A DNA stretch of 62,625 nt, filler included. It is 4 parts of 4 records of this genome, joined end to end, with 100 filler letters (N's around TTAATTAATTAA, not from the genome) between each part and the next. Parts side by side here need not be neighbours in the genome. Positions count along the whole stretch, not along the records: positions 43,041 to 52,713 come from SRR31156797_8418; 3 more parts are not named here. One strand, 5' to 3'. Both the position numbers and the translations under genes were made by a program. This document shows positions 33,927 through 53,207 of this stretch, piece after piece; within the stretch, counting starts at the first letter, position 1, and each line of letters opens with the position of its first letter. The notes beneath the pieces were generated by a model. That model ran no database searches and was not told the DNA's origin. It saw only the letters and a program-made list of their open reading frames with translations.

Positions 33927-33935
33927 GAGGGCGCC

Positions 33936-35366
33936 GTGGAAATGCAACTTCGCAAGGTCTTGAAACTCCGAACAGTTATTTCCACTGCCGCGGGCATGGC
34001 CATGGCCACGTCCTGTTACCTGGCCGGCCTGCAGGTCGCCATAATTACGGCCGGAGAACTGGCCTGGATATCGATCCTCACGGCAGGCGCCTTGTGCCTG
34101 CTTTCGGCCATGTGCTTTTCGGAACTCACAGCCCTGTATCCCACGGCCGCGGGCATAAAACTCTTTATCCAGAACGCTTTTAATGAAAAGTCGGCCATAG
34201 CTATCGGCATGTTCTATGTCATCCTGGGCATATCCATGGTCGGCGCGGAAAGCTACCTTTTATCGAGCGTGCTCCTCGAAACAGTGGGCATAATTATCGA
34301 TCCATTGGCCGACCGTTTTATCTGGCAGACCATTTTCATTATTCTTGTCGGATACATAAATTATCGCGGCGTGCAGATTACCGGGCGTTTGCAGGACTTT
34401 CTGACCTATTCCATGCTCGCCTTTCTGATAATCATTTCCATTTACACCTTCACTTCCCATGGATTGGACATGTCCGCCGCCCTGGACAGCCCGCGTTTAA
34501 CGGTCGAAAATGTTTTAAACGCGGCGGCAGTTGGCGTATTTCTTTATGTTGGCTTTGAATGGGTCACGCCGTTGGCCGAAGAAACAACAGATTACCGGCT
34601 TATCGGCAAGGGCATGATGTACGCGATCGGTCTGCTGTCCATTACTTACGCCCTGTTTGTAACCGCCATGTATTCCGGGCTGACCGAAGAACAGTTGAGC
34701 AGCGGAACCAGCATCCCCCATATACTTTTCGCCCGGAACATTCTCGGTCCTGCCGGAGGCGTCCTGTTCATAATCATGAGTATTGTCGCCTCGGTCACTT
34801 CATTCAACGCGGGCCTGCTCAATACATCAAGATTCACATACGCCATGGCCCGGGACAACACCCTGCCGCGCTTTCTGACAAAATTACACCCCGACCACGC
34901 CACTCCCTGGGCGGCCATCCTGGTCCTGATGATATTCGCGGCGTTCCTCAGCCTGGCTATTCTGCTGACCGGTCAATACCTGTTCATAATTGTCATGGCC
35001 GCTGCACTGGAATGCTTCATATACGTGGTTATGGCCGTGTGCGTGCTTCGATTGCGTAAAAGACGCCCGGATCAGGAAAGGTCTTTCAAAGTCCCCTTTG
35101 GACCGGTAATTCCCATCATCACGATTCTGGTCTTCACCGGATTGATGATCGGGCTTTTCGTCGACTCCACCAAGGACTATGCAGGCAATATCCTGTTTGA
35201 AAATTTCTGGGTCGCCGGGGCCATGATAATATTTGCAGGCCTTTGCCTTCTTTACACCCTGACCGTTGTCCCGGCATTTAAAAAGGCTGCGGCGGCCCGG
35301 GCCGCAACCAGAAAAAAACGCCGCCCATCCAGGCGACCGGCGCCGGAAGAAACGGCCGAAATTTAA
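33936..35366 (+). CDS. APC-superfamily amino acid/amine permease
   Basis: CFSELTALYPTAAG, YVGFEW...AEE, SRFTYAMARD..LP, HP...TPW, R.FKVP; about 12 TM. Confidence 0.92.
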   Translation: MEMQLRKVLKLRTVISTAAGMAMATSCYLAGLQVAIITAGELAWISILTAGALCLLSAMCFSELTALYPTAAGIKLFIQNAFNEKSAIAIGMFYVILGISMVGAESYLLSSVLLETVGIIIDPLADRFIWQTIFIILVGYINYRGVQITGRLQDFLTYSMLAFLIIISIYTFTSHGLDMSAALDSPRLTVENVLNAAAVGVFLYVGFEWVTPLAEETTDYRLIGKGMMYAIGLLSITYALFVTAMYSGLTEEQLSSGTSIPHILFARNILGPAGGVLFIIMSIVASVTSFNAGLLNTSRFTYAMARDNTLPRFLTKLHPDHATPWAAILVLMIFAAFLSLAILLTGQYLFIIVMAAALECFIYVVMAVCVLRLRKRRPDQERSFKVPFGPVIPIITILVFTGLMIGLFVDSTKDYAGNILFENFWVAGAMIIFAGLCLLYTLTVVPAFKKAAAARAATRKKRRPSRRPAPEETAEI

Positions 35367-35403
35367 CAATTCAAAAATTCGGCGCCCAATCGGGCGCCGT
35401 TTT

Positions 35404-37806: not shown

Positions 37807-37910
37807 ACCGGCTGCATAAAAGGGCAGAAAAACAAGAAGAGGGCGATTCAGGCTAAAGCTTTTTATTTTTATTCATCCGCCCGGACGAGTGCACTCGCCC
37901 GGGCGATATT

Positions 37911-38231
37911 CTAATCGGGAGCGCCGTTTCCATCGAAAGCCCTCTTTAAACGTTGATCGAACTCGCGTTCCATTGCTTCCATCTGCAAGTGGAGTTCAAC
38001 CATTTTTCGGCGCATTTCCAAAATAACGCCTATCCCGGGCAGGTTAACGCCCAGGTCGGTCTTGAGTCTTTCGATCATGGCAATGGCTTCCACATCCACC
38101 GGTTTTAGAAGGCTCCTGCCTCCAACCCGGTGAAGCTCGATAAATCCCTCTTCTTCGTATATTCGAATAGTTCGCGTGGATATCCCGAATCTGCGTGCAA
38201 CCTGAGTTATGGTCAATATCGGCTTTGGCAT
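37911..38231 (-). CDS. MerR-family regulator (HspR/CbpM-like)
   Basis: TITQVARRFGISTRTIRIYEEEG, DLGVNLPGI; directly downstream of the DnaJ-class gene. Confidence 0.85.
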   Translation of the reverse strand: MPKPILTITQVARRFGISTRTIRIYEEEGFIELHRVGGRSLLKPVDVEAIAMIERLKTDLGVNLPGIGVILEMRRKMVELHLQMEAMEREFDQRLKRAFDGNGAPD

Positions 38232-38238
38232 TTTAATC

Positions 38239-39270
38239 TTAACTCCTCCGGACTTCCTGGGGGGCCAGGTCCTTGAGTTGCTCGAACAGCCCCCGGGCCT
38301 CGGAACTCAAATCCTTGGGAATGATAACTTTAACCGTCACATAAAGATCCCCGGACGGCTTCCCTTTGGAACCCTTGACCCCTTGTCCTTTAAGCCGGAA
38401 CTTGCCCCCGTTCTGCGTTCCCGGCGGTATCTTCAGGGCCGCCCTTCCCGTCAGGGTCGGGACTTCTATCTTACCCCCAAGAACAGCCTCGTAAAGAGTT
38501 ATTTCCGTTTCAAGCAAAATATCCTGCCCCTGCCTGCTGAATACGTTGTCAGGGGCTACTTCTACTTCTAAAAACAGGTCGCCGGCCGGCCCTCCGTTCT
38601 GCCCGGGCATGCCCTTTCCGGCCAGCCGAACTTTTGAACCGGTATCGACGCCCGCCGGTATGCGGGCTTTTAATTTTTCCCTTGTCGAAGTCCGTCCCCG
38701 TCCTCCGCAGGCAGGGCAAGGCTGCATCTGGTTTCCGACCACGGAAAATCCCTGGCCCTCGCAGGCGTTGCACAATGCCGGCCGGTCGAATTCCAAAGTG
38801 GTTTCCGTTCCGAATACGGCATCCCGAAAACCTATTTTCAGGCTGTAAGAAAGGTCGCCCCCGCGACGCGGGCCGGCCTGGAACTCAAATCCGCCTCCGC
38901 CCCGGTTAAAAGCGGTTCCGTAATCAAAACCGCCTCCGCCGCCCGCGGCCCGGGCCTGTCCTCCGAAAATATCACCGAATAAATCTTCAAAACTGAAACC
39001 CGTACTAAAATCCGGTCTCTCGTACCCGGCTCCGCCGAAAGCATTGTCGTAAAATGCCTGTTGGCCCAGGTTGTCGTACTCGGCCCTCTTGGCTTCGTTG
39101 CCGAGAATGTCGTGAGCCTCGGATATCTCCTTGAACTTTTCCTCGGCTTCCTTATCCCCGGGATTGACATCCGGATGATACTTTCTGGCCAGCTTGCGAT
39201 AAGCTTTTTTTATGTCTTCCTGAGACGCGTCCTTTGACAGCCCCAACACTTCATATGGATCGATATTCAT
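38239..39270 (-). CDS. DnaJ-class chaperone (J domain, G/F region, two CxxCxGxG, C-terminal domain)
   Basis: [36 protein letters not shown]. Confidence 0.93.
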
Positions 39271-39498
39271 GGCTAACTCTCAGCGTATATTGACGTTTTA
39301 AAAAAAATAGTAAGATCGGGACCGGCCGATGTCAAGGACCGATCCGCAAACCCGACCCGCTTGCGGTCGTCCAATGATTATAGTAAATTGAAAGACAAAT
39401 GATGCAGCATCCTCATAAAAAACGGCGAAGCGCTTCATATACCAGGGATATGTTAATGATTCCTGTAAACGACGGATCCGGCCCGGAGGGACGCATAA

Positions 39499-40794
39499 GT
39501 GGTCGATAACATGCCAGGTAAAATTGGCCGTTACAATGTCCTTAAAGCACTCGGCCGCGGGGGCATGGGCGCTGTTTTTCTGGCCCACGATCCTTTTATC
39601 GACCGGCCCGTGGCCGTAAAAACAACCAAGGCCCCTCCACCCAGCGACCCGCAAAAATTCGACGAATACCAGCAGTTATTTTTTAATGAAGCCCGGGCGG
39701 CCGGCAAACTCATGCATAGAAATATCGTTTCCATGTACGACGCCCTGGTGGATGAACACCACAGTTACATGGTCATGGAATACGTGGACGGCCTGACCCT
39801 TTCCAAATACTGCCGCCAGGACAATCTTCTGCCCATTCACAAGGTGGTCAACATAGTATTCCAGTGCGCCAAGGCTTTGGATTACGCTCATGAGCGCGGC
39901 GTCGTGCACAGGGATATTAAACCCAGCAATATACTTGTTTCCGAACTGGGCTCGGCCAAGATATCCGACTTCGGCATCGCCAGGATAGCAGGCGCCTCCC
40001 TGACCGAATCCATGAAAACATTGGCCGGTTCCGTTAATTACTCTTCTCCGGAACAACTTCGAAACGAAGAACTTACCGGGCAGACAGATATTTTTTCCCT
40101 GGGCGTGGTCTTATATGAAATGCTGACCGGCGTTCGGCCGTTTGACGCGGAAACAGACATTGCCGTCTTCTACCGAATCAATAATGAAGAACCCAAACCG
40201 GTTAAGGAATGCCGGGTGGATGTGCCTGAATCCCTGGAAAAAATCGTTCATCGCTGTTTGCAGAAAGACCTGGATAAAAGGTATGCCTCGGGCGGGCTGC
40301 TGGCCCAGGAATTGATCGCCTCCTTCGACCACCTGCGGTTTCTCAAGGAAGAAATTAACAACGAAGAAAAAATCAATGTATTGAAAAAAATAGGGTTTTT
40401 TAAAGGATTTTCAGCCAGTGAACTGGCCGAGGTCCTCAAGGAGACAGCCTGGGTCAGGTATGAAGGCGGCTCCCTGATCATTTCCGAAGGGGAAATAGAC
40501 GACAGTTTTTTTGTCCTGGTTTCCGGAGAAGTCATTGTCAGGAAAAAAGGACGAGTGCTGGCTACACTTAAACCCGGAGACTGTTTCGGTGAAATGGCCT
40601 ATTTTGGCAATATCAAACGCACGGCCAGCATTCTGGCCGTGGGCGCGGCAATACTGATGAAAATACATGCTTCAAACGTAGACAATATGTCCATCAGCAC
40701 TCAACTTAGATTTTACAAAATATTTTCAACAACCTTGATACAAAGGCTGGCCCGGACCAGCGAAGAATTGTCCAGGACCGGCTTTACTCTGTAA
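39499..40794 (+). CDS. Hanks-type Ser/Thr kinase fused to a cyclic-nucleotide-binding domain
   Basis: LGRGGMG, VAVK, HRDIKPSN, DFG, YSSPE; C-terminal G.CFGEMA....RTAS. Confidence 0.93.
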   Translation: MVDNMPGKIGRYNVLKALGRGGMGAVFLAHDPFIDRPVAVKTTKAPPPSDPQKFDEYQQLFFNEARAAGKLMHRNIVSMYDALVDEHHSYMVMEYVDGLTLSKYCRQDNLLPIHKVVNIVFQCAKALDYAHERGVVHRDIKPSNILVSELGSAKISDFGIARIAGASLTESMKTLAGSVNYSSPEQLRNEELTGQTDIFSLGVVLYEMLTGVRPFDAETDIAVFYRINNEEPKPVKECRVDVPESLEKIVHRCLQKDLDKRYASGGLLAQELIASFDHLRFLKEEINNEEKINVLKKIGFFKGFSASELAEVLKETAWVRYEGGSLIISEGEIDDSFFVLVSGEVIVRKKGRVLATLKPGDCFGEMAYFGNIKRTASILAVGAAILMKIHASNVDNMSISTQLRFYKIFSTTLIQRLARTSEELSRTGFTL

Positions 40795-40846
40795 TTCAAT
40801 TATCAATTACCTGAAGTTAGAATTCTCTATCGGAGGCAAAAAAATC

Positions 40847-41923
40847 ATGAGCAAGGAATTTCCACTGGTTGAATTAAGCGGCGCTCCTTTTGATATGGGT
40901 TTTGCTCACGGCCGGGCCCTGGCCCATAAAATTAAAGAAAACCTGGCTCACTATACCGGCTGGATTACATACCTGACCGGAACGCAGGCGGACTGGACCC
41001 GGGAGGCGGCCCGTAAATTTATCCCCGCCCTGGAAAACGAAGCTCCCGAATTGCTTGAAGAAATGCAAGGCATTGCCAAAGGTGCGGATGTGTCGTTGGA
41101 AGACGTCCTTTTTATCAACGCCCGGTCGGAATTGCTGCTTATGAGCCCCCAGTCGGGATTGCCTCAGGCAGGCGAATGCACAGCCGTAGCTTTAGCCGGG
41201 AATCGGACCGAATACGGCCGGCTCATCATGGGCCAGAATTGGGATTGGTATCACCGCATACTCGAGACTTCGGCCGTGTTCCATATAAAACCTTCAAAAG
41301 CTCCGGCCGCCTTTTACCTGGCCGAAGCCGGGCAGGTGGGTAAAATAGGAATCAATGAAGCCGGCGTAGGCGTTCTGATTAATATCCTTATGACTGGCGG
41401 CGTGGGGCAAGGCATCCCCTTTCACGTTCTTCTGCGAATGGTTTTGGCTGAAGAAAAATGCACGGACGCTGCGGCCATGGTCAAAAACGCCCCCAGGGCC
41501 GGCGCCAGCCATTTGATGATCGGCGACGCCAATGGAGATGCAATCGGTATTGAAATAAGCGATGTCACATCCGCTGAAATCAAGCCGGATAACGGCCTGC
41601 TGATACACACCAACCATTATTGCGACCCGGATCTCGCCCCCCAAGACCTGGGCAAGGCCCTGTTTGTCGATTCCGAACCTCGATACAACCGGGCCCAATC
41701 AATATTGGCCGAAAAAGATATCTGGGACGAAAAATCTTTTGAAACCCTGTTTGTTAATCATGAAGACGGATTGCCGTCCATATGCCGGCATGTGGACCAC
41801 GAAGCTGACGAATACATGAGAGTCGCCACCCTGGCTTCCGTCATTATGGTCCCGGACAGCAAAACCATGCGCGTCACGTATGGAAATCCCTGCGACGCCG
41901 AATATAGCGAATACAAGCTGTAA
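40847..41923 (+). CDS. Peptidase C45 (isopenicillin-N acyltransferase-like Ntn hydrolase)
   Basis: G..HG, EEMQGIA.GA, GECT autocleavage site, GQNWDW, GINEAG, HTNH. Confidence 0.9.
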   Translation: MSKEFPLVELSGAPFDMGFAHGRALAHKIKENLAHYTGWITYLTGTQADWTREAARKFIPALENEAPELLEEMQGIAKGADVSLEDVLFINARSELLLMSPQSGLPQAGECTAVALAGNRTEYGRLIMGQNWDWYHRILETSAVFHIKPSKAPAAFYLAEAGQVGKIGINEAGVGVLINILMTGGVGQGIPFHVLLRMVLAEEKCTDAAAMVKNAPRAGASHLMIGDANGDAIGIEISDVTSAEIKPDNGLLIHTNHYCDPDLAPQDLGKALFVDSEPRYNRAQSILAEKDIWDEKSFETLFVNHEDGLPSICRHVDHEADEYMRVATLASVIMVPDSKTMRVTYGNPCDAEYSEYKL

Positions 41924-41958
41924 AGCCTGTTGCAGCCAGTCCCCTTTGGAGAACCAAC

Positions 41959-42840
41959 ATGGAAACCGCTTTCGGACCCGTGCGTATACTTTTTGGAGAC
42001 AACCGCGGCAAGTACCCAAATTGCCATACAATTTACGTGGAAGCCGACACCAGGGTCGTCATAGATCCCGGCTGCAACCGGGACGTGTTATCCGGGCTGC
42101 TTAAAGGGCCCGGCGTGGATGCTGTCTGGTTGACCCATGTTCACGAAGATCATATAACCCACCTCGATCTTTTCATGGACCGCCCGTTGTGGGTTTCTGA
42201 AAAAGAGGCTTCCGCTTTTGACAGCCTGGACGCCTTCATGAGCTTTTTCCCTCAAACAGATGAAGAAAGAGCCATGTGGGATCAAATGCTTATCGAAACA
42301 TTTCATTACCGGCCGCGGAAAGTCGACCGTCTCTTTTCAGGGCGGGAAACAATAGATTTGGGCGGCGTAATTGTGGAAGCCGTGCCCGCCCCCGGACACA
42401 CGCCCGGGCATTATTCCTTTTATTTTCCGGAACAGGGCGTCCTGTTCATGGCCGATTACGACCTGACCCCGTTCGGCCCGTATTACGGCGATTTATATTC
42501 GGACATTGACGACGTGATCGACTCGGTCAACAGACTGCGTGAAATCCCGGCCAAAATCTGGCTGACTTCCCACGAAAAGGGGATGATTGAAGCCGAACCA
42601 GGCGACCTTTGGGATAAATACCTGGCCGTAATCGATACACGGGAAAACAAGCTGCTCGATCTGTTAAAAGAGCCGCGCACCATGGAAGAAATTATCCAGG
42701 CCAGGATTGTATACGGCAAAGTCCGTGAACCTAAGGAATTTTTCGATTACGGCGAACGAAACCTCATGGCCCGGCACCTTGTCCGCCTGATGAACAATGG
42801 CGTCGTAGCCCATGAAAATGATAGATATTCTCTGATTTAA
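41959..42840 (+). CDS. MBL-fold metallo-hydrolase with C-terminal wHTH-like region
   Basis: IDPG, THVHEDH, PGHTPGH, ADYDL, TSH. Confidence 0.88.
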   Translation: METAFGPVRILFGDNRGKYPNCHTIYVEADTRVVIDPGCNRDVLSGLLKGPGVDAVWLTHVHEDHITHLDLFMDRPLWVSEKEASAFDSLDAFMSFFPQTDEERAMWDQMLIETFHYRPRKVDRLFSGRETIDLGGVIVEAVPAPGHTPGHYSFYFPEQGVLFMADYDLTPFGPYYGDLYSDIDDVIDSVNRLREIPAKIWLTSHEKGMIEAEPGDLWDKYLAVIDTRENKLLDLLKEPRTMEEIIQARIVYGKVREPKEFFDYGERNLMARHLVRLMNNGVVAHENDRYSLI

Positions 42841-43040: not shown

Positions 43041-43430
43041 TTAAGGCCATTATTTTTGCAGTTCATTATAGATTGAACTAACTAATTTATTTAGCAAAGT
43101 TAGTTTTTTGAATTTTTTTACTGATATTAGACAAATTGTCGTTTTGTGTTATTTTTGTCTAAAAATTTCAGTTTTTTTACAAAATTCATGTTTTAATTTA
43201 TTTTTATGCTGATTAGTAGAGCAAATAACACTAAACAGTGTCTTTATGTGTCACATATGACGTTTTTATAATGTTTGTTTTTCTTGTGAAAGTTATGTGG
43301 AAGGTGTATAATTTAGGGAAATATGAATAATGCGCAATAATGTTGCGTGTTATTATATATGCAACTTTTTACTTATATAATGCCTATAAACGAATTAGGT
43401 GTGATACTTCATTAATTTTAAGGAGGAAAT

Positions 43431-44051
43431 ATGAATATATTTCAAGCGGTTTTATGTAATTGGTATACACTAGATGTTAAGTTTAATTATGTACTTTTTA
43501 TCGGAATCATTTCCATTATTTTACTGATTAGATTTTTTATTAAGCATAAGGCACAAGATTTCGAAATTGATTCTGCTGAGTTTGGTTTTGGAGCCAATAA
43601 GTTAGTCATAAAAGAAAATAGCCTTGATTATCAAATTGCATATATGATATGGATTGAACTAAGTACAAGAAAGTTAGGGATAATGATCGACAAGGAACAT
43701 GATGTTGTTCACGAAATTTATGATTCTTGGTATAATTTTTTTGAAATCACACGTGAGTTGTTGAAAGAAATACCAGTAAGTAAAATTAATAGATCGGATA
43801 CCACATATAAATTAATTGAGCTTTCTTTTGAAGTTTTAAATGATATAATACGTCCTCATTTAACAGTTTGGCAAGCTAAATATAGAAAATGGTATAAAAA
43901 TAATGAGAATAATTATGAGAACCTTACTCCTCAGGAGACACAAAAGAAGTATCCAGAGTATAATAAACTTTTGAAAGAGATGGAGTTAGTTAATAAACAG
44001 TTAATAAATTATAGAAATTTAATGTATGGAATTATAAGGAGGGGAAGATAA
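43431..44051 (+). CDS. Uncharacterised single-TM helical protein, first gene of the TIR operon
   Basis: AAGGAGG RBS; TM at ~aa 19-36; WIELSTRK, YDSWY, IRPHLTVWQ motifs; TAA directly abuts the next ATG. Confidence 0.75.
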   Translation: MNIFQAVLCNWYTLDVKFNYVLFIGIISIILLIRFFIKHKAQDFEIDSAEFGFGANKLVIKENSLDYQIAYMIWIELSTRKLGIMIDKEHDVVHEIYDSWYNFFEITRELLKEIPVSKINRSDTTYKLIELSFEVLNDIIRPHLTVWQAKYRKWYKNNENNYENLTPQETQKKYPEYNKLLKEMELVNKQLINYRNLMYGIIRRGR

Positions 44052-44657
44052 ATGCACAAGGTATTTATTAGTTATCATCATGCCAATGATCAGTATTATA
44101 AAGATGAACTATTAAGACTCAATGAAACTAATCAATTTTTTGTAGATAGATCCGTAGGTGATTATGATATTGATGATTCATTAGATGATCAATCTATTAG
44201 AAAAATAATAAGAGATAAATATCTAAAAGATAGTACTATTACAATCCTTTTAGTTGGTGCAGAAACTAAGAACAGAAAACATATCGATTGGGAGCTTTAT
44301 TCCAGTATGTATAATGGTAGTAAAAATAAAAAGTCCGGAATAATTGTTGTTACTCTACAGGAACCAGATAATCAAAATTTTATTGCGGTTCATGATAAAG
44401 AGAAGGAAACCATATATCCAGAATGTACTAACTGGATTCCAACTTTACCTGAAAATGAGTTAAAGCGTAGATATCCTAATATGCCTAAGAGAATTATTAA
44501 GAACCTTTTATATGAGGAATCATTCATTTCAGTTATTTCTTGGGAACGATTTATTAGTAGCCCAACTATAATTAAGTTTCTTCTTGACGCAACTTACAAC
44601 GATAGAAGTAAAGCTGAATATGATTTAAGTATGCCAATGAGAAGGGCTAACGGTTAG
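44052..44657 (+). CDS. thsB: Thoeris ThsB-like TIR protein (DUF1863 type) 1
   Basis: KVFISYHH.ND, IRDKYLKDSTITILLVG.ET..RKHIDWEL (putative catalytic Glu). Confidence 0.88.
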   Translation: MHKVFISYHHANDQYYKDELLRLNETNQFFVDRSVGDYDIDDSLDDQSIRKIIRDKYLKDSTITILLVGAETKNRKHIDWELYSSMYNGSKNKKSGIIVVTLQEPDNQNFIAVHDKEKETIYPECTNWIPTLPENELKRRYPNMPKRIIKNLLYEESFISVISWERFISSPTIIKFLLDATYNDRSKAEYDLSMPMRRANG

Positions 44658-44744
44658 CTTCGTAATAGCAATCAATATAGACAAAGTCTAGAAGTGCATT
44701 CATATCGTAAAATTATACTAAATATTAATAAAGGAGTTGAACGT

Positions 44745-45311
44745 ATGGCATATAATGGTTTTGGAATAAAACGTCAAGTGTTCATATCTCATTATAAAGG
44801 AGATAGAAAAGAAGTTGATAATTTTATTGAAAAATTTGCTAATCAAGAAAAGGTATTTACTCCTTATGTTCTAGGTGCTAATGACAATGATGAGTTCATT
44901 AACAGCACTAATACAGATTATGTAATGAATCAAATAAGGAAAAAATATTTACAAGATACAACTGTTACCATCGTTTTAATTGGGAAATGTACTCATAGTA
45001 GAAGATACATTGACTGGGAGATAAAAAGTTCTTTGAGACAAGGAGGTTTTACCCCTAATGGATTATTGGGAATTCTTTTGCCCAGTCAAGGAAATTCGGC
45101 ACATCTTCCTCCTAGATTTAAACAAAATTGGGAAAGAGGTGAACAAAATTGCTACTCTAGGTATAGATCATACCCTAAAAGTGCAAAAGAATTGCATGAT
45201 TGGATTGAAGATGCTTACGATGCAAGAATTAAAAAGGCTAATTTAATAAAAAATAGCCAAGAAATGATGAAATATAATAATAAATGCAACGTTTGTAAAA
45301 TAACCCATTAG
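44745..45311 (+). CDS. thsB: Thoeris ThsB-like TIR protein (DUF1863 type) 2
   Basis: ATG 44745 after AAGGAG; QVFISHY, IRKKYLQDTTVTIVLIG....RRYIDWEI, NGLLGI.LP...LPPR. Confidence 0.87.
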   Translation: MAYNGFGIKRQVFISHYKGDRKEVDNFIEKFANQEKVFTPYVLGANDNDEFINSTNTDYVMNQIRKKYLQDTTVTIVLIGKCTHSRRYIDWEIKSSLRQGGFTPNGLLGILLPSQGNSAHLPPRFKQNWERGEQNCYSRYRSYPKSAKELHDWIEDAYDARIKKANLIKNSQEMMKYNNKCNVCKITH

Positions 45312-45346
45312 ACAACATGTCACAAAAATAAAAAAGGAGATAAAAA

Positions 45347-45901
45347 ATGGCTATAATTAATCTATTCGATCAATTTGAAAAAAGTAAATTATATAATGAA
45401 AGTGTAATCTTAGAAAACGTTGCACTTAACAAAGAAAGAATTTTTTTATCACATAAAAGCATTGATAAAGAAAAAGTTAAAATAATTGCTAAATTTCTTA
45501 ATAAAAATGGATATGATATTTATTTAGATGAATATGATAAATTTTTGCAAGAAGCAGTTACAAATAGTAATCATAATAAAGTCGTTGAAGCGATTAAAGA
45601 AGGTATTGAAAAATCTACACATCTATTATCTTATATTTCAAAAAATACAGATAAATCTTGGTGGGTTCCTTATGAAATCGGTTTAGCTGATGAGAAATTA
45701 AAAAAAATTATGAGTTTAAAAGATAAAGAAGTTGATAACTCAAGACTTCCAGAATTTATTAAGATTAAGCCTATCATCAGAGAAGTAATTCAATTAGAAA
45801 AATATTTCCCTAAGAAATATTCTTCTAATGGTTTATTCCTATTTTCTGAAAGTAATGACAATTCCAATTATAGAACCAATCTGTATGAAATACTTGAATA
45901 A
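45347..45901 (+). CDS. Stand-alone TIR (TIR_2-type) protein
   Basis: IFLSHKSIDK, GYDIYLD, STHLL..IS..T..SWWVPYEIG (putative catalytic Glu); AAGGAG RBS. Confidence 0.88.
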   Translation: MAIINLFDQFEKSKLYNESVILENVALNKERIFLSHKSIDKEKVKIIAKFLNKNGYDIYLDEYDKFLQEAVTNSNHNKVVEAIKEGIEKSTHLLSYISKNTDKSWWVPYEIGLADEKLKKIMSLKDKEVDNSRLPEFIKIKPIIREVIQLEKYFPKKYSSNGLFLFSESNDNSNYRTNLYEILE

Positions 45902-45919
45902 TGAAAGGAGTGATATAAG

Positions 45920-47914
45920 GTGTATAAAGAGCCTTTAACTATACATATCTTGTGGCATGAAAAATTTGAAGAAGGAACAAATTTTGCCGAGTATATATTT
46001 AAAAAACTAAATAGAGATCCTGATAATATTAATTTTAGAGATATTGGTATCCCTGTAATTTTTAAAAATCTTTCTAAAAATGATACTCATATTAATTATG
46101 ATAAAACAGACAGAACATTTATAGTAATATTAGTTGATGATTACATGGTTATGGATAAAGAATGGGGTAATTATATTAATTTAATTTCGGAAAAAGTAAA
46201 AACCTCTAATAATATTCATCTTTTACCAGTAGCAATGAATAGTAATTCTTTTAATTTAAATATTGGAAGTAAAAATTACATTCGATTACATGATGTAGAA
46301 ACTTTTGAATCAATATTTAAAAATTCAGAAAATTTAAGAGATAATTTAGAGTTCAAAAAAGAGTTTTTATTAAGTGAACTATCTCATGAAATAGCAAGAG
46401 AATTAATTAATCCTGATAATAAAGCTCCTTTAAAGCTATTTTTAAGTCATGCTAAATCTGATGGAGTTAATATTACAAGAATTTTAAAAAAATATATAGA
46501 AACTTTTACGAAATCAAAAACCTTTTTTGATGCTAATGATATTGAAATTGGAAAAGAGTTTTGGGAAAGAATTGAAAAAAATATTGAAACATCTTTTTTA
46601 GTTATTATTCAATCTGATCAATACTCAAATAGTATGTGGTGTCGAAAGGAAATTCTTGCTGCAAAAAAACATAATAGACCTATTTTATGCATTAATTCAA
46701 TTGAAAAAGAAGAAAATCGTTCTTTTCCTTATATGGCAAACATTAAAAATATACGTTTGACAGAAAAATCTTCATTCAAGGATTTTTACCATGTAATAAC
46801 TGAAATATATATTGAAGCAATTCGTAATAAATTTAACCAATTAAAAATGGAAGTTTTTGTTAAAAATAATAACATTGATAGCAAAATAATAATTAATTCT
46901 CCAGAATTATTGGATTTTGTTGAAAATAAAGATTTTACAGAAGATTTAATCATTTATCCTGATCCACCATTATCTGAAGAAGAAATAGAATTATTTGATA
47001 ATTCAAAAAAATACCTAACCCCATTAACTTATATAACCAAGCATAAAAGAATATTGGAAAATAAGAAAATTTCATTCTCTATTTCTGAAGAATCTATGAA
47101 ACAAAAAAAAGTAAAGTTTTATATGCTAAAAGATATCATGAATGAATTAATTAGATATATATTTTATTACGGAGGAAATATATATTATGGCGGGGATTTA
47201 AAGTATGATGTTAAGGATAATTACAATTTATTAAAAAGTATGATTAATGTTCTAGAAGCATATAATAAAACTGCTGATAAAAACGATAAAGAAATTGTTA
47301 ATTACGTAGCATATCCTTTAACAGAAAATTTATCAATTTCAGATGAAGCAAAATATAAAAAAATAGTTAAATTTGAGAAAATAATTCCAAATGATTTTAA
47401 AACAGATTTAACAGATATAGAAAAAAATAACATATTTTGTTTAAATAAAATTGAGGATTTAGAAAAATGGTGTATATCTCTTTCTACAATGCGAGAAAAC
47501 TTATTAAAAAAAGTTGATGCTGTTGTCATAATGGGTGGAAAAACAATAGGATATAAGGGATGTTATCCTGGAGTTTTAGAAGAATTTTTGATAGCAAAAG
47601 ACAATAAAAAACCAATCTATATACTAGGCGGATTTGGTGGTACTAGTAAGGAAATAATTAATTTAATCAAAGGAAAGGATTCTGAAAAACTAAGTGAACT
47701 ATATCAACTAGAGAATAATAATGAACATTACAAAAATTATTATAATCAAAAAATAGAATTAAAATACGAAGCTATTTGTTCTCAGATTAAAAATGATGAA
47801 ATAAATCAATTGAATAATGGTCTAACTGATGAGGAAAATAAGGTTTTATTTGAATCAGAGAATGCCTATGAAATCATGAATTTAATCATAAAAGGACTAG
47901 CTAATATTTTCTAA
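45920..47914 (+). CDS. TIR-like + TIR + SLOG fusion protein
   Basis: TIR: LFLSHAKSDG, TFFDANDI, YSNSMWCRKEI (from ~46430); SLOG: ISFSISE, YYGGDL, LSTMRE, VIMGG, PGVLEE, KPIYILGGFGG (from ~47065); N-terminal alpha/beta domain resembles a degenerate TIR. Confidence 0.82.
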   Translation: MYKEPLTIHILWHEKFEEGTNFAEYIFKKLNRDPDNINFRDIGIPVIFKNLSKNDTHINYDKTDRTFIVILVDDYMVMDKEWGNYINLISEKVKTSNNIHLLPVAMNSNSFNLNIGSKNYIRLHDVETFESIFKNSENLRDNLEFKKEFLLSELSHEIARELINPDNKAPLKLFLSHAKSDGVNITRILKKYIETFTKSKTFFDANDIEIGKEFWERIEKNIETSFLVIIQSDQYSNSMWCRKEILAAKKHNRPILCINSIEKEENRSFPYMANIKNIRLTEKSSFKDFYHVITEIYIEAIRNKFNQLKMEVFVKNNNIDSKIIINSPELLDFVENKDFTEDLIIYPDPPLSEEEIELFDNSKKYLTPLTYITKHKRILENKKISFSISEESMKQKKVKFYMLKDIMNELIRYIFYYGGNIYYGGDLKYDVKDNYNLLKSMINVLEAYNKTADKNDKEIVNYVAYPLTENLSISDEAKYKKIVKFEKIIPNDFKTDLTDIEKNNIFCLNKIEDLEKWCISLSTMRENLLKKVDAVVIMGGKTIGYKGCYPGVLEEFLIAKDNKKPIYILGGFGGTSKEIINLIKGKDSEKLSELYQLENNNEHYKNYYNQKIELKYEAICSQIKNDEINQLNNGLTDEENKVLFESENAYEIMNLIIKGLANIF

Positions 47915-48001
47915 AAATTCTTATCCTAAAACTAAAGTTTTTATCCTATGCGTAGTGTGCTTGTAAACTAAGAAATAATTATGAAAGGAAGTGATTCGTA
48001 C

Positions 48002-51000
48002 ATGCAAAATACTGTTAAAACTCTTAATAGAGATTCTATATTTAAGACAGCCTATAAGCAATATCAAATATTTTTTAAATTTCTAAATAAAAATAATTGG
48101 CTCGCAAGAATAACTTCTTTATTGGTTTTTACATTACTTTCAACTCTGGTTTGGTATCTCTTACTTGGTTATCTACAATTTAATATTTGGAAACAACCTG
48201 ATCCTGGTAAACATATTGATCACTTTATACTAAATATTCTTAAAATTGATGGGATAAAATTCAATTATTTTCAGTTAAAAGGTATTTTAATGATGTGGGT
48301 TGACTCTTTAAGTATTGTCCTTCCTACCATATTTATGGTATCTATTGTTACGCTATATGCAAGTAAAATATCTAAAAAATCAAAATATTCTTTTTTATCT
48401 CTTTCTCTAAGTTTTATTATAAATATTTTTATCGCATTAGTTCCATCACTAATAGCTTTTTATATAACAGAAGCATATTTTAGTAATAATACTCTCTATA
48501 AAGAGCAAACTACTTGGTTTTTAGAGAAGTTTATAGATATTTCTTCTGATTATACATACTTTGAATCGTTTAGTATCTATGCTTTATCTACCCTTACTCC
48601 TTGGTTTATATGGATTTGTTTGTTACTATTAGAGATTTCTAAACGTAGCTCGCGTTCAGCAATTTATGTATTAACATTTATGTTTCAAGTCTTGAGATTT
48701 CAATACTCTATTTCCAATTCATTAAATATCGAAGCTGAAAAACTTGAAGAAGTTCATGGAATTAATCATCTAAAACATAAGATAAAAGGTTATTCTATAT
48801 TAACTCGTGCAGCAATAGCACGCTTTGGGGGATACGATTTTTTTATTTCATATAGTCGAAAACCTGAAAAATTAATTAAAGTTGGAGGATATAATTATGC
48901 TCATAAACTAAAAGAAATACTGGAATCAGATGGATTTAAATGTTTTATTGATGATTCAAGTATGCATCATGGTGAATCTTGGAAAAAATCAGTTTTTAAA
49001 GCATTAACACGTTCTTCAGTATTACTAGTTGTGGCAAATGCAAAAGCCTTAAAACAATCCAGTGTTATTAACGAAATCAGAACTTTTTCCCATATGCCAC
49101 GTCCAATAATGCCTATTTCTTTTAATAATAGCGTTAAAAATCTTGATACGAATTTAGAGGTCTGGTCATTATTAGAACAACGGTTACGATGTGAAGAACC
49201 TAGGGGGATTGTCGCATTAAAAGATGGAATCCCTTCGCCTGATATTATTGAAACTTGTAATAATGCTTTTATTGGAGTAAAAATACAGCGTGTTCGGCAA
49301 TTAATACTATTTCTTCTGGTGTTAGTTCTAACTGGTTTATCATTATTTGCTTGGAGAAACGCCACTAAAGAAGTTAAAGCCCGTAAAGCATTAAATATCC
49401 AACTTATTGGAAGCTCTTCAATAAATGAAATTGAAAAAAACCCTTATTTAGCTTTAATCTTAGCAAGAAAATCTGGTGACTTACTAGAAAATACTCAACC
49501 TCCTTCATCCACAATAAATGCAATTAATAAAATCTTAAATCAATGGCCTGCCCTCCACAGCGCTCAACGGATTGTAACCAATACTTTATTAACATCATCT
49601 CCATGGTTAGAAAAGGATTTTATTGCTGTAGGTAGTAGCTACGCATGGCTATTTCCAGAACTAAGAAAACCTAGGGAATTTCAACCTATTGAATATCGAA
49701 ATCCTATAGATTTTTCTGAAATTAATCCAACAAGTGGAACTTATCTAAAAAATATAAATCAGTTTATATTAGGTGATTACAAAGGTAATATTTATAAGCT
49801 TTCGCGTGATGCTTCTAAACTCAAACTTTTAGAAAATTTAGCAGATGATAGAATTTCCCCCATTGTTAGTACAGAATCGCTACCTAACTATATACTATAT
49901 GCTACTGAAGCTGATCATCCAGAGATTTGTCTTTTAAATATTAAAACAATGCAAACGCAAAAAATTAATTTTAATCAATTTAAGTATCAAATTGATCAGC
50001 TGGCTATGACTTCAAATAAAATATATGCTCTCTCTAGAGGAAATCTATTTGAAGCATCTCTTTTAAAAATAAAAGATGAGATCCAAATTGATGAAAATTC
50101 ATGGAAAAAACTAGAAACACCTATCGACTCTATAGATCATTTTGCATTAAAAGCAGATTCTAACATTTTTGCAGTTACAGACGGTTATAAGTATTTTATA
50201 ATTGATTCCTCTAAAAATGAAATTATTCATAACGACGAATTTAAAAACACCTATATAAGTGCACTTACTTTTGCACTTAATAGTAACCAAATAGCTATTA
50301 GCTTACAGAGCAATAAGAAAAACGAAGTTATTTGTATTGATTTTTATAACAAGAAATCTTTAAATTCCTATCCAAGTCTTGATAATGTTGCTGCTTCTTA
50401 CATTAAGTACATCGATAACGATTCGAAACTTGTATCTGTAAGCTACGAAGGGCTAGCTGTAATATGGGATCTAGAAATTGAACAATTACAACCAACAACA
50501 CTTCCTGGAAAGCTGATAGCAGTTGAACCAAAATTTAAAGGTGGCTTTGACTTACTTATTGACAAAAAAAATGATGAACCTCTATATAATTCAAACGATA
50601 ATATTAGAGTAAATATAATGCCATACGAAAGTACAGGGACTTTTCATGATTTTTCTTCATCTGTGGAAAATGATTTCCTATTTTTATCAAAAGGTAATTC
50701 CGTGTATAAAAAATCTCCTTCTGATGAAAATGAATGGGAAAAATTACTCACCGATAATACTGGAAAGCAAATTAAAAAACTAGATACAATTAATAACCAC
50801 ATTTGGTTATTTCGTGATGATCTTATGTTCAACAATTATGACTTAAAAAATGGGTCTTTTAATAATGAATGGTTAAAATCACCTCGCAGTAGTGCTCGTT
50901 TTGTAAATCGTTCAATGTCAAAAAATGAAATTGAACAGAGAAGTATTATAAGACAAATTATCTACTCACCACAACTTAACTTGAAGCTATTGATATTATC

Positions 51001-51598
51001 TAATGGTAGTTTAATAAAATATCAATTAGGATTACTACAAAAATTAAATATTCTTCCCTTACATAGTTCATTAACTTATGGAATTACTAACATTAGTAGT
51101 AATGAAATTATTCATACCTCTAATAATAACTCATTTCTTGCAATTGCTAATGAAAATAGTTCTGAAGTCACAATGTTCCATATTAAGGAAAAAAGAATTA
51201 TTAAAAAAAATAAATATTTTGATAAAAAACCTGTTGGTTTAGCTCTTTCAAATCATAGTGAAATGCTAGCAATAATATTTGAGAAGCAAAATCCAAATAC
51301 AGCTGAAGGAATTGATTTAATCCTTCAAATACTCGATCCTAACTCTTTTGAACCTTTAACTTCTGAAATCTTAATACCAGGAGAATACGATGAAGAAAGG
51401 CATCCTTTAATGGCTTTTGATCCAATTGAAGAAAAATTATTAATTAGCCGTTATGGTCGAGATTATATAATTTTGCCATTTTCATTTAACCATAGTTATC
51501 AGCAATTAAGAAATAAAGTTTCTTTTGAATTATTCCCTGACGAAGCTAAAAGGTATAACTTAGAGTATATTGAATTACCAAAAAGATCTGTTAAATAA
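48002..51598 (+). CDS. Multi-TM + TIR + TM + WD40-like beta-propeller protein
   Basis: About 4 N-terminal hydrophobic helices; TIR YDFFISYSR, CFIDD, SSVLLVV, SVINEI; TM LILFLLVLVLTGLSLFAW; WD-like blades such as LVSVSYEGLAVIWDL; ATG 48002 after AAGGAAGTGA (ORF track starts at 47981). Confidence 0.78.
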   Translation: MQNTVKTLNRDSIFKTAYKQYQIFFKFLNKNNWLARITSLLVFTLLSTLVWYLLLGYLQFNIWKQPDPGKHIDHFILNILKIDGIKFNYFQLKGILMMWVDSLSIVLPTIFMVSIVTLYASKISKKSKYSFLSLSLSFIINIFIALVPSLIAFYITEAYFSNNTLYKEQTTWFLEKFIDISSDYTYFESFSIYALSTLTPWFIWICLLLLEISKRSSRSAIYVLTFMFQVLRFQYSISNSLNIEAEKLEEVHGINHLKHKIKGYSILTRAAIARFGGYDFFISYSRKPEKLIKVGGYNYAHKLKEILESDGFKCFIDDSSMHHGESWKKSVFKALTRSSVLLVVANAKALKQSSVINEIRTFSHMPRPIMPISFNNSVKNLDTNLEVWSLLEQRLRCEEPRGIVALKDGIPSPDIIETCNNAFIGVKIQRVRQLILFLLVLVLTGLSLFAWRNATKEVKARKALNIQLIGSSSINEIEKNPYLALILARKSGDLLENTQPPSSTINAINKILNQWPALHSAQRIVTNTLLTSSPWLEKDFIAVGSSYAWLFPELRKPREFQPIEYRNPIDFSEINPTSGTYLKNINQFILGDYKGNIYKLSRDASKLKLLENLADDRISPIVSTESLPNYILYATEADHPEICLLNIKTMQTQKINFNQFKYQIDQLAMTSNKIYALSRGNLFEASLLKIKDEIQIDENSWKKLETPIDSIDHFALKADSNIFAVTDGYKYFIIDSSKNEIIHNDEFKNTYISALTFALNSNQIAISLQSNKKNEVICIDFYNKKSLNSYPSLDNVAASYIKYIDNDSKLVSVSYEGLAVIWDLEIEQLQPTTLPGKLIAVEPKFKGGFDLLIDKKNDEPLYNSNDNIRVNIMPYESTGTFHDFSSSVENDFLFLSKGNSVYKKSPSDENEWEKLLTDNTGKQIKKLDTINNHIWLFRDDLMFNNYDLKNGSFNNEWLKSPRSSARFVNRSMSKNEIEQRSIIRQIIYSPQLNLKLLILSNGSLIKYQLGLLQKLNILPLHSSLTYGITNISSNEIIHTSNNNSFLAIANENSSEVTMFHIKEKRIIKKNKYFDKKPVGLALSNHSEMLAIIFEKQNPNTAEGIDLILQILDPNSFEPLTSEILIPGEYDEERHPLMAFDPIEEKLLISRYGRDYIILPFSFNHSYQQLRNKVSFELFPDEAKRYNLEYIELPKRSVK

Positions 51599-51711
51599 TT
51601 ATAAACAAATTAGTATACATAAACAAAACCGTCTAACAACATGACCTAAAATGAAAAGCGGATTTCAGTTTAGTCGCAAATACGATAAACTCATCAAAAG
51701 CTCTACAAAAG

Positions 51712-51763
51712 AAAAAACAACCCCTCCCAAAACGCTCAACAGCGCCTCAGGAGGGGTCTTTTT
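51712..51763. terminator. Hairpin/terminator between the TIR operon and the HEPN gene
   Basis: ACCCCTCC...GGAGGGGT stem flanked by A and T runs. Confidence 0.65.
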
Positions 51764-51774
51764 ATCTTAAATAT

Positions 51775-52680
51775 TTACTTTTCCTTCTCAGCCAATTCCC
51801 TAAACTGCTCCAACTTCTCATTACAAATATCATATGTCAGCTTCTTCAACTGCTCCACTCGAACTACTAAATACTCCAACTGTTCTTTAGTAATCACAAA
51901 GTCTTTCTTATAACGCGATCCAATATATGATTCTTGCAATTTATCAAACATATCTTTTTCCAATTGAGTTTTTCGAGGAAATGGATGTCTAAATCTTGAG
52001 TCTTCTTTTATCGCCTGCCCTAAAAGCATTTCCAAATCATGAGTTTTCGGTTTATAATCAGTAAAAATAAGAATATTCGTCATTAAAAATCTTTCTGTTG
52101 CTTGATGTAGCATCAAAGAAGCCAGTTTATAGTATTCTTTATCAAATTCAGATTCTCCCATATTAAGGTAATAATTTCTTAAGAATCTAGTAGCACTGCC
52201 TCCCCACTCTTCCAGATACTCATTCACCTTTTCAACTCTCACAACATAGCTAATCTCTTTCGGTTCCTCAAACTCCCAATTTGGCTCATTATACAGAACT
52301 ATCCCTTCATGATAAATGTCGCAGAAGAAATAACGCCTTTCATCCAACATCTCAGTTATATAGTCATAGCCGTGAAAGATCAAACTAACGGGAGTCTCAG
52401 TTTCATAGTGAGCTCTGACATAATCTCTCACTTTCCCCACGAACTTCTTGCTCCTTGATCTCCCCTCATATCTGGTAACAATCAGCAGATCATAGTCACT
52501 TTTATATTCATATGTGATACCATCTTCTACATAGCTGTCATCTACCCAAGTCCCCCGTGCAAAACTACCATAGAGAATTATCATCTCTATCCTGCCTGCG
52601 AATTCCTCTTTGATCAGATCAACGAATCTATTCAGCTCATCCTGCTTTGACTGTGGTAAATGTGCAATACTTGTCTTCAT
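51775..52680 (-). CDS. Fused nucleotidyltransferase (MNT)-HEPN protein
   Basis: ILYGSFARG, SDYDLL (pol-beta NTase); HEPN LHQATER...PKTHDL...YIGSRY. Confidence 0.88.
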   Translation of the reverse strand: MKTSIAHLPQSKQDELNRFVDLIKEEFAGRIEMIILYGSFARGTWVDDSYVEDGITYEYKSDYDLLIVTRYEGRSRSKKFVGKVRDYVRAHYETETPVSLIFHGYDYITEMLDERRYFFCDIYHEGIVLYNEPNWEFEEPKEISYVVRVEKVNEYLEEWGGSATRFLRNYYLNMGESEFDKEYYKLASLMLHQATERFLMTNILIFTDYKPKTHDLEMLLGQAIKEDSRFRHPFPRKTQLEKDMFDKLQESYIGSRYKKDFVITKEQLEYLVVRVEQLKKLTYDICNEKLEQFRELAEKEK

Positions 52681-52713
52681 AAACTCATCCTCAATAATTA
52701 GTTTTTATTCATT

Positions 52714-52813
52714 NNNNNNNNNNNNNNNNNNNNNNNNNNNNNNNNNNNNNNNNNNNNTTAATTAATTAANNNNNNNNNNNNNNNNNNNNNNNNNNNNNNN
52801 NNNNNNNNNNNNN
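52714..52813. other. Artificial contig linker
   Basis: N44-TTAATTAATTAA-N44. Confidence 0.99.
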
Positions 52814-53207
52814 ATTTTTCTTTTATTATCATTTTTACATCTTTTGTTGTAAAAATTTGTTTATCTATTAATAATAATTTAAGCTCATCAAACTCTTTTG
52901 GTGTTAACCGCGAAGGTCTTCCAGGTTGTTTTGTAGGTACTAAACCTTCATAACCACTTTGATTCCAGTAGTCACGCCATCGATAGATATTTCTACTGGG
53001 AATTTTAAATGTAGTGATGACATCTTTGACCTTCATGCCATGATATATAGCATTTAAACAAAGTAATTTAATTTTGATATTACCATTTTTTTCTTCAGAT
53101 ATACATTTTTCTAATAACTCAGGATTTAAAATCTCCATAACAATCACCCATATATGTTATACTCCATTTTTCATATAAATCTGTCATTATTTAGGATTAT
53201 CATTATA
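52814..53207 (-). mobile_element. IS630-family element, left part (transposase N-terminal HTH, 53147 to contig end)
   Basis: IYRWRDYWNQSGYEGL....PGRPSRLT pattern of IS630 HTH domains; putative end at the TA at 53207-53206. Confidence 0.72.

Follow-up and report, generated by a model that had tools for sequence, protein, structure and literature searches.

What a protein that joins TIR to SLOG does in an operon already rich in TIR proteins is the question raised by the locus described here. The locus lies in a window (the whole stretch of DNA that was analysed) of 62,625 nucleotides (nt), filler included, which is made of four record parts joined end to end that are not necessarily neighbours in the genome; positions 43,041–52,713 come from SRR31156797_8418. 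Six co-directional genes, termed g1 to g6 and separated by gaps of 0, 36, 35, 18 and 66 nt, form the operon, and together they encode five TIR-domain proteins and one SLOG domain. The fifth gene encodes the TIR–SLOG protein, and on the best reading it is the core component, present as a single copy, of a multi-TIR defence operon akin to Thoeris. Because the protein combines a ThsA-like SLOG with a SARM1- and SPARTA-like TIR that bears an invariant Glu, and because its neighbours are of ThsB type, we propose that it is a TIR NADase gated by its SLOG and able to read signals from its partner TIRs, a ThsA-like arrangement in which a TIR would replace SIR2. We infer its chemistry and regulation from these likenesses, and judge the chances of this proposal to be about even.

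The open reading frame (ORF) exists where an earlier reading of the letters of this window (hereafter the original prediction) had placed it: it runs from 45920 to 47914 on the plus strand, encodes 664 amino acids (aa) from a GTG start and contains every motif that had been quoted (LTIHILWH at residues 6–13, FIVILVDD at 67–74, LLPVA at 101–105 and WCRKE at 240–244 and, in the SLOG, YGGD at 423–426, PGVLEE at 550–555 and GGFGG at 570–574). A Shine–Dalgarno sequence, AAAGGAG, lies about 9 nt 5′ of the GTG, and homologues begin at the same first residue. The ORF is not a chance frame, because it is long for DNA of 23–25% GC content and has strong homologues (top homologue E 6.6e-274). The gene divides into four regions.

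45920..46414, + strand: N-terminal domain, aa 1–165; TIR fold with no conserved Glu (AlphaFold2 model and structure search)
46433..46819, + strand: central TIR, aa 172–300; TIR_2, structure match, invariant S176, H177, K179, W240, C241 and E244
46820..47050, + strand: helical linker, aa 301–377; helices in the model, PEL and YPDPP motifs conserved, two-gene forms split at its end (aa 371–374)
47051..47914, + strand: SLOG cluster2 domain, aa 378–664 and stop; LD_cluster2, structure match to the ThsA SLOG

Domains of the TIR–SLOG protein

The C-terminal region is a SLOG domain. Pfam family PF18163 (LD_cluster2, SLOG cluster2) matches aa 379–643 with 249.8 bits (cut-off 25.3; E 4.4e-74) over profile positions 2–264 of 264, and a second match, to STALD, is borderline (24.4 bits, cut-off 24) and covers the pocket region only. 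Comparison with the Pfam SLOG clusters was the check that the original prediction had suggested for its C-terminal SLOG, and the structural comparison below agrees with it that the C terminus has a SLOG fold. The whole protein was modelled with AlphaFold2 from an alignment of 55 full-length homologues (predicted local distance difference test (pLDDT) 89.4; predicted template-modelling score (pTM) 0.89). Ranks for the SLOG and the central TIR come from re-alignment of the best 998 Foldseek chains. Within this set, the SLOG (aa 378–664) is matched best by the SLOG of BcThsA bound to 3′cADPR, an isomer of cyclic ADP-ribose (7uxs_A; Z 15.5, root mean squared deviation (rmsd) 3.0, 182 of 196 aa), followed by EcThsA (Z 15.2), the LOG-like TM1055 (1rcu; 13.6), the ADP-ribose (ADPR)-binding region of TRPM2 (13.3) and LOG enzymes (12.3–12.4).

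The pocket is conserved. In the 55-sequence alignment S389, Y423, G425, R525, G539, G540, G551, E555 and G574 are invariant in the SLOG, and P328, E329, Y346, P349 and P350 in the linker. In the available text of Manik et al. (10.1101/2022.05.07.491051), the contacts of BcThsA to 3′cADPR are G289, S290, L326, Q359, R371, K388, G399 and E403. The series R525–K541–G551–E555 of the TIR–SLOG protein has spacings of 16, 10 and 4 residues, against 17, 11 and 4 for R371–K388–G399–E403 of BcThsA, from which we infer that the two sets of residues may be equivalent. The predicted pocket would comprise S387/S389, Y423–G425, R525, G539–G540–K541, P550–G551, E554–E555 and G570–G574.

The central domain, which the original prediction had taken for a canonical TIR with WCRKE, scores above the cut-off of Pfam PF13676 (TIR_2; aa 174–284, 47.3 bits, cut-off 28) and retains an intact active site: S176, H177, K179, W240, C241 and E244 are invariant in all 55 full-length homologues, and a PDB sequence search aligns WCRKE with WCLDE of AtTIR (3jrn). 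Its best structural match (aa 170–297) is the TIR of SARM1 (Z 15.1, rmsd 2.4, 125 aa), followed by Caenorhabditis elegans TIR-1 (Z 14.2), the TIR-APAZ protein of SPARTA (13.9) and MyD88 (13.7). The Pfam scan found no SIR2 family in the protein at E ≤ 1, and no PADLOC model matched it, those for ThsA included.

No Pfam family matched residues 1–170. The N-terminal domain folded alone (aa 1–172; pLDDT 88.5) returned nothing at E ≤ 0.001 from Foldseek, where TIR and flavodoxin rows were weak. In a VIA-align search of 48,161 representative chains its top four matches are all TIRs (Cat1, Z 11.1; AtTIR, 10.5; RPS4, 10.5; IL-18Rβ, 10.1), with flavodoxin-like and receiver folds next at Z of about 8–9. 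As TIRs hold ranks one to four and flavodoxin-like folds follow closely, the model is best described as a TIR fold by a modest margin over generic three-layer folds. The alignment contains no conserved Glu in this domain (P45 is invariant, and D73, W82 and P103 are conserved at ≥ 90%). The TIR-like, Glu-less N-terminal domain of the original prediction is thus borne out, its fold within that margin.

Related loci and partner TIRs

Relatives of the TIR–SLOG protein are patchily but widely distributed. A word-indexed search scored 8000 candidates, of which 135 reached E ≤ 0.001, and more than 90 of the 120 listed homologues share the full-length architecture. The sources are Halanaerobium, Bacillus, Priestia, Lysinibacillus, Pectobacterium, Dickeya and many metagenomes. 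With one genome taken per species, 443 of 185,579 species genomes encode a relative (443 of the 454 pattern matches), and two relatives were found among 2.9 million viral contigs. Eighty loci (numbered with the prefix L) were kept for locus counts. They span Bacillota, Bacteroidota, Pseudomonadota, Myxococcota, Planctomycetota, Verrucomicrobiota, Spirochaetota and one metagenome-assembled genome (MAG) of Promethearchaeota. The last of these (L044, 8001–10022) carries a full-length TIR–SLOG cluster2 gene with an adjoining ThsB-type TIR gene on a 269-kb Asgard contig.

TIR and SLOG are coupled throughout the family. They are fused in 59 of the 80 loci and encoded by separate genes in 16, the remaining five being cut by a contig end or unclear; the split point corresponds to query residues ~371–377, at the end of the linker, and stop and start codons often overlap there. 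That the two parts occur either fused or split at one fixed point argues that they are an obligate pair acting as one unit. When 1.84 billion representatives were searched with only the SLOG, 1435 proteins reached E ≤ 0.001, 672 of them 1e-10 and 58 of them 1e-30. Among the best 150 SLOG cluster2 proteins, 75 have the length of the fusion (600–780 aa) and 55 that of a standalone SLOG (230–345 aa); the other 20 comprise 13 of intermediate length, mostly starting within the TIR or the linker, six fragments and, as the sole other architecture, a giant protein of 1569 aa that has the TIR motif too. Fused and standalone lengths thus dominate, and judged by sequence SLOG cluster2 is therefore dedicated to a TIR partner rather than a promiscuous sensor module. 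Occasional N-terminal fusions to the TIR part bring in a cNMP-binding domain (P0108), a ParA-like ATPase (L035) or a calcineurin-like phosphoesterase (L078).

The partners proposed to make the signal are found in the same operon, the remaining genes of which are as follows.

43431..44051, + strand: g1, 206 aa, one predicted N-terminal membrane helix (aa 19–37) and a helical domain (ORF, hydrophobic segment)
44052..44657, + strand: g2, 201 aa, ThsB-type TIR with Glu E81 in DWELY (Pfam ThsB_TIR, E 6.4e-20; PADLOC ThsB)
44694..45311, + strand: g3, 205 aa, ThsB-type TIR with Glu E109 in DWEIK (Pfam ThsB_TIR, E 7.2e-18, aa 30–132)
45347..45901, + strand: g4, 184 aa, TIR_2/ThsB-type TIR with Glu E110 in VPYEIG (Pfam TIR_2, E 8.1e-10; PADLOC ThsB, E 5e-18)
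47981..51598, + strand: g6, 1205 aa, membrane TIR protein (TIR_2, E 1.4e-9; hydrophobic segments)

The upstream TIRs invoked by the original prediction as a source of signal are therefore three genes that match the ThsB_TIR or TIR_2 families of Pfam and the ThsB models of PADLOC. Against PF08937 (ThsB_TIR; cut-off 21.2) g2, g3 and g4 score 71.9, 65.3 and 31.6 bits, and all three retain the Glu; the alignment of g2 to BcThsB (6lhy) spans the Glu at the catalytic position, and that of g4 to 8btn_B (E 4.6e-8) likewise runs across its Glu. The protein encoded by g3 is 72% identical to the product of the gene immediately upstream of the TIR–SLOG gene in L051. The GTG start listed for g3 may be too far 5′, as homologues align from residue ~15–18, where an ATG sits.

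Neighbours were counted in the full-flank set, that is, the 50 of the 80 loci with at least 4 kb on both sides, and separate TIR genes by iterated searches seeded with g2, g3 and g4 within 5 kb. At least one separate TIR gene is present in 34 of these 50 loci, at least two in 27 and at least three in 14. ThsB-type TIR genes are the commonest neighbours of the relatives, and in five genomes that carry a TIR–SLOG gene 12 of the 14 ThsB_TIR matches genome-wide sit at its locus. A quick maximum-likelihood tree of 98 small TIR neighbours, with support from the Shimodaira–Hasegawa-like approximate likelihood-ratio test (SH-aLRT) only, resolved the partner TIRs into well-supported clades with at most one member per locus, each spanning phyla. 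The g2 clade has five members (SH-aLRT 99), those of L015, L024, L030 and L072 lying just downstream of the TIR–SLOG gene; the g3 clade has three (SH-aLRT 99), including L051 and L019; and the g4 clade has 18 (SH-aLRT 98). The catalytic Glu is kept in 83 of 84 sequences across seven partner-TIR clades, and L012, from Niallia, contains the gene set of the window in a different order. Since they fall into discrete, one-per-locus clades that keep the Glu, the partner TIRs look like fixed, non-redundant subunits, catalytically intact by sequence, rather than variable paralogues.

Together these features fit the logic of the original prediction, a SLOG that may switch on a TIR NADase, and suggest how such a protein might operate. 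The three small ThsB-type TIRs, perhaps with g6, would sense infection and, by analogy with Thoeris, convert NAD+ to an ADP-ribose-derived signal. The SLOG cluster2 pocket, whose fold and conservation are as described above, would bind this signal; binding would shift the oligomeric arrangement of the protein, so that the central TIR, with E244, became active and depleted NAD+. The Glu-less N-terminal TIR-like domain would provide an extra TIR–TIR interface and act as a scaffold. The predicted outcome is growth arrest or death of the infected cell, and g1 may act downstream or in parallel.

The SLOG pocket, the g1 domain and rival roles

Several observations weigh against this reading. PDB sequence searches, whether the query was the full protein, the profile of the family or the SLOG by itself, returned TIR domains only and no ThsA or LOG. 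The Arg and Glu of the SLOG pocket coincide with catalytic residues of LOG-type N-glycosidases, and the modelled fold and the conservation cannot separate a ligand-sensing SLOG from a LOG-like catalytic one. Fixed classes of partner suggest a multi-subunit or multi-step TIR machine rather than interchangeable sensors. Patatin, Tle1-like lipase and trypsin-like peptidase genes adjoin some relatives, some with the g1 domain described below, and classical effector neighbours of this kind would fit a TIR–SLOG protein that acts upstream of another effector. In type III Thoeris, whose layout the operon resembles, the field takes the SLOG protein, not a TIR, to be the effector, according to the available text of 10.64898/2025.12.03.692087. 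Finally, a separate TIR gene within 5 kb is missing from 16 of the 50 full-flank loci, so that a TIR-to-TIR relay cannot be the whole story for the family.

That last count bears on the idea that the TIR–SLOG protein is a self-contained sensor and effector, in which the SLOG would read some other nucleotide (a phage-made or modified (deoxy)nucleotide, ADPR or the level of NAD+) and gate the TIR directly, the neighbouring TIRs being separate or auxiliary systems in a defence island. The cNMP-binding and ParA-like ATPase fusions would be other inputs on this account. It would also fit the presence of Nmad2 genes in 14 of the 50 full-flank loci (L033, L034, L037, L045, L047, L049, L055, L059, L069, L073–L076 and L079), often with MazG_C, 5-hmdU DNA kinase, UDG or thymidylate kinase or synthase genes, a module that links TIR–SLOG signalling to modified-nucleotide metabolism. 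We nevertheless consider a self-contained protein quite unlikely: the TIR neighbours are tightly coupled to the gene, by overlaps or gaps of less than 40 nt, in the window and in many loci; nearly all ThsB_TIR genes of the five genomes above stand at the TIR–SLOG locus; and the same ThsB clades recur with the TIR–SLOG gene across phyla.

The coincidence with LOG enzymes bears on a different role, that of making or converting a signal. Here the TIR, alone or with the partner TIRs in a hetero-oligomer, would make an ADPR-type product, which a LOG-like SLOG would process into a second signal for separate effectors such as g1-family, patatin or Tle1-like proteins. The SLOG does retain the catalytic Arg and PG..EE motif of LOG enzymes, LOG enzymes and TM1055 are among its structural matches, and Aravind and co-workers suggest, in the available text of PMC9503650, that ADPr-derived signals may be produced from NAD+ by some SLOG domains. 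Partner TIRs that form fixed orthologous classes with the Glu retained fit this role too. Calcineurin-like phosphoesterases, fused to the TIR part in L078 or encoded next to it, downstream, in L018, L023 and L034, could degrade such a signal and thereby be an off-switch.

What keeps signal conversion or amplification as the main rival is the recurrence of the g1 domain on varied effectors. The product of g1 matches no Pfam, PADLOC or NCBIfam family, and in the ESM Atlas only unnamed clusters; no nucleotide separates its stop codon from the start of g2. A jackhmmer search found relatives in 12 of the 80 loci (L003, L005, L006, L010, L011, L012, L013, L020, L051, L056, L066 and L070). Four of these family members carry N-terminal membrane helices; five are soluble proteins of ~170–215 aa, three of them encoded immediately upstream of the TIR–SLOG gene in loci without small TIRs; and three lie inside larger proteins, namely patatins (L005 and L056) and a Tle1-like phospholipase (L070). 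Their conserved motifs resemble W.LYVEL.TR and LN..LRPFL..WH. This distribution, as a membrane protein, free or within lipases, is typical of a regulatory or receiving domain that different effectors have in common, and the g1 domain may be an unrecognised signal-receiving or adaptor domain. In the window, g1 itself is a candidate downstream effector or adaptor. A complex prediction for the whole TIR–SLOG protein with aa 40–206 of g1 (score 0.00, mark 0.34) speaks neither for nor against an interaction.

On the other side, the g1 family is confined to those 12 loci, many loci have no candidate effector besides the TIR–SLOG protein, and the SLOG model is nearer to the non-catalytic ThsA sensor (Z 15.5) than to TM1055 (13.6) or LOG (12.3–12.4). 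The TIR model, among the matches listed, is likewise nearer to NAD-depleting effectors than to solved ThsB-type producers. We therefore regard signal conversion as a minority possibility, if a live one. The operon can also be envisaged as a two-tier TIR cascade rather than a simple pair of sensor and effector, in which the partner TIRs would make a first NAD-derived signal, the TIR–SLOG protein would read it and amplify or convert it to a second, and the helical g1-family domain would couple the second signal to membrane or lipase effectors. We offer this cascade only tentatively and think it doubtful. Were it true, the type III 'SLOG effector' would be the regulatory half of a TIR enzyme, and the g1 family would be a new family of signal-receiving domains.

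Known systems and genomic setting

Type III Thoeris was reportedly described by van den Berg et al. in 2024 (Cell Host Microbe 32:1427). In the available text of 10.64898/2025.12.03.692087, with a like passage in the Rousset preprint, the type consists of several TIR proteins and a SLOG protein; the former text calls its signalling uncharacterised, names the effector ThsD and cites van den Berg et al. 2024. Among the named Thoeris types, by the same text, this alone has a signal and an effector mechanism still called uncharacterised; a phage inhibitor, TadIII-1, is mentioned in two papers. The operon of the window is like type III Thoeris in placing several TIR-domain proteins and a SLOG in one operon, a named layout that the original prediction did not recognise. 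The TIR–SLOG protein, however, reaches 39.7 bits on the ThcB4 model (NCBIfam NF058526, cut-off 220), over the TIR region only, and it does not match ThcA (NCBIfam NF058525, cut-off 110) at E ≤ 0.01 or LD_cluster3 (PF18180) at E ≤ 1. For comparison, the split-form relative in L018 scores 50.9 bits on ThcB4 and a genuine ThcB4, from L092, 478 bits, and a genuine ThcA scores 253.5 bits on NF058525 and matches LD_cluster3. ThcB4 lies above cut-off in four of 401 genomes of the family of G001 (which holds L062 and is titled Azotobacter chroococcum).

The type III loci that were fetched encode a 380-aa ThcB4, which like the TIR part of the TIR–SLOG family has an additional N-terminal region ahead of its TIR, followed by an overlapping 205-aa ThcA (SLOG cluster3), next to a convergent operon of ThsB_TIR, Nmad2, MazG_C and UDG. 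ThcB4 precedes ThcA and their stop and start overlap, as in the split TIR–SLOG forms, and the accessory module of a ThsB-type TIR with Nmad2, MazG_C and UDG is shared by type III loci and the TIR–SLOG family; a ThsB-type TIR with Nmad2 is common to cluster2 TIR–SLOG loci and the genuine ThcB4/ThcA loci (L091 and L092). There are also clear differences. Unlike ThcA, the TIR–SLOG protein has a cluster2 SLOG of ~287 aa, not a cluster3 SLOG of ~184 aa; unlike ThcB4 with ThcA, it is a single fused polypeptide; and unlike the type III loci, the operon of the window lacks Nmad2, MazG_C and UDG and has three other ThsB classes, g1 and g6. Because the protein fails both NCBIfam equivalog models, we file the system, on profile scores, as a fused SLOG-cluster2 variant of the type III Thoeris layout rather than as a ThcA/ThcB4 member.

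A profile of the TIR–SLOG family matches ThcB4 with a probability of 80.7% (E 1.3e-5), in a stretch that takes in the TIR and some of the region upstream of it. Homology of the N-terminal domain to the N-terminal region of ThcB4 is not supported, since the profile of that domain alone gives a probability of 0.4%; for this reason the family match is probably carried by the TIR. The field may already file cluster2 SLOGs under type III ThsD, as two observations hint. Among 61 genomes of the genus of L037 (titled uncultured Sediminibacterium), ThcA is found in none and LD_cluster2 in two, and the available text of the Yirmiya preprint mentions ThsD in a Sediminibacterium genome.

The TIRs of type I Thoeris are variable paralogues, whereas the partner TIRs of the TIR–SLOG system form several fixed classes. 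In other respects the protein resembles type I ThsA, in that an NAD+-cleaving-type domain is N-terminal and a SLOG C-terminal, the SLOG of ThsA superposes best and ThsB-type genes adjoin. ThsA is a SIR2–SLOG protein, whereas the putative NADase here is a TIR; the SLOG also belongs to a different Pfam family, and the N-terminal TIR-like domain is extra.

Ligand-gated TIR NADase effectors, in which the NADase is turned on upon assembly, include TIR-STING, TIR-SAVED, Cat1 (CARF-TIR), the TIR-APAZ protein of SPARTA and SARM1. Like these, the TIR–SLOG protein couples a sensor domain to a TIR; its central TIR is closest to those of SARM1 and SPARTA and its N-terminal domain to that of Cat1, and the structure matches of the latter include the Cat1 filament with cA4 and TIR-STING with c-di-GMP. 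Unlike them, its sensor is a SLOG, whose likely ligands are themselves TIR products, and it has two TIR-fold domains in tandem.

SLOG–TIR systems were predicted by comparative genomics years ago, as stated in the available text of PMC7824862, and the class is traced to Burroughs, Aravind and co-workers (NAR 2015; named in the available texts of PMC7824862 and PMC9503650). The TIR–SLOG protein is like these predicted conflict systems, as far as those texts describe them, in its LD_cluster2 family and in a SLOG that would sense or process ADPr derivatives in TIR-linked immunity. The literature searched contained no experimental study of a TIR–SLOG cluster2 protein. The family joins a ThcB4-like TIR protein to a SLOG protein, and if the two act as one unit the 'SLOG effector' would be a SLOG-regulated TIR enzyme, a SARM1-like NADase with a ThsA-like pocket, which gives type III-like systems a testable model: a ligand for the SLOG, loss of NAD+ that depends on E244, and a need for three to four distinct, intact TIRs. 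The g1 family also offers a new candidate for a domain that couples membrane and lipase effectors to a signal.

The last gene of the operon, g6, is a candidate membrane sensor TIR. It has about four N-terminal membrane helices, a TIR at aa 287–383 with the Glu in VINEIR and a further membrane helix at ~440–458, and its C-terminal ~750 aa give a weak β-propeller signal (WDR5, E 4.8e-4, far under cut-off). The layout is receptor-like, in that the membrane probably separates the TIR from the large domain. Together, g1 and g6 are likely further parts of the system, which the original prediction had overlooked. TIR-WD40 or STAND-WD40 genes adjoin relatives in L006, L009, L013, L028, L029 and L032, and the Pfam scan of neighbours, which covered 146 of 150 neighbouring ORFs on the same strand, found ThsB_TIR and TIR_2 genes, and TIR-WD40, WD40 and nSTAND1-WD40 giants, as recurring neighbours. 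Beyond the operon, the window contains the following features.

51719..51758, no strand assigned: strong bidirectional terminator-like hairpin of 18 pairs (9 G–C), lying after the operon and before the convergent gene (consensus scan)
51775–52680, − strand: nucleotidyltransferase (weak SMODS/Polbeta)–HEPN fusion (NTase–HEPN), 301 aa, convergent to the operon
52758–53147, − strand: small transposase-like helix-turn-helix (HTH) protein, after the NTase–HEPN gene in the window

The receptor-like layout of g6, and the ordinary metabolic and regulatory genes on one flank, could also be taken to mean that the operon serves a housekeeping or developmental NAD-derived signalling, for example envelope or cell–cell sensing through g6. 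Such a non-immune role is in our view very improbable. In the window, the NTase–HEPN and transposase-like HTH genes next to the operon point to a defence island or to mobile DNA; the neighbours in related loci include restriction-modification, AbiJ/AAA, OLD-TOPRIM, Schlafen-like helicase and transposase genes; the patchy distribution crosses phyla; and the layout is akin to that of a system reported as anti-phage. The GC content of the operon (23–28% or, by a wider figure, 23–32%) is also unusually low.

The operon starts ~590 nt past a 52% GC block in the window. This block, at window positions 32250–42840, is sharply bounded, 10.6 kb long and of ~52% GC within DNA of ~30% GC, and represents either a recent foreign insertion or an assembly chimera. 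It carries genes for a class-III aminotransferase, SCP2, an amino-acid permease, ComEC/Rec2, a DnaJ-like protein, a Ser/Thr kinase with a cNMP-binding domain, an AAT-family acyltransferase and an MBL-fold hydrolase. The remaining window consists of ordinary low-GC bacterial genes, such as those for a family II pyrophosphatase, DinB, a histidine kinase and ABC permeases.

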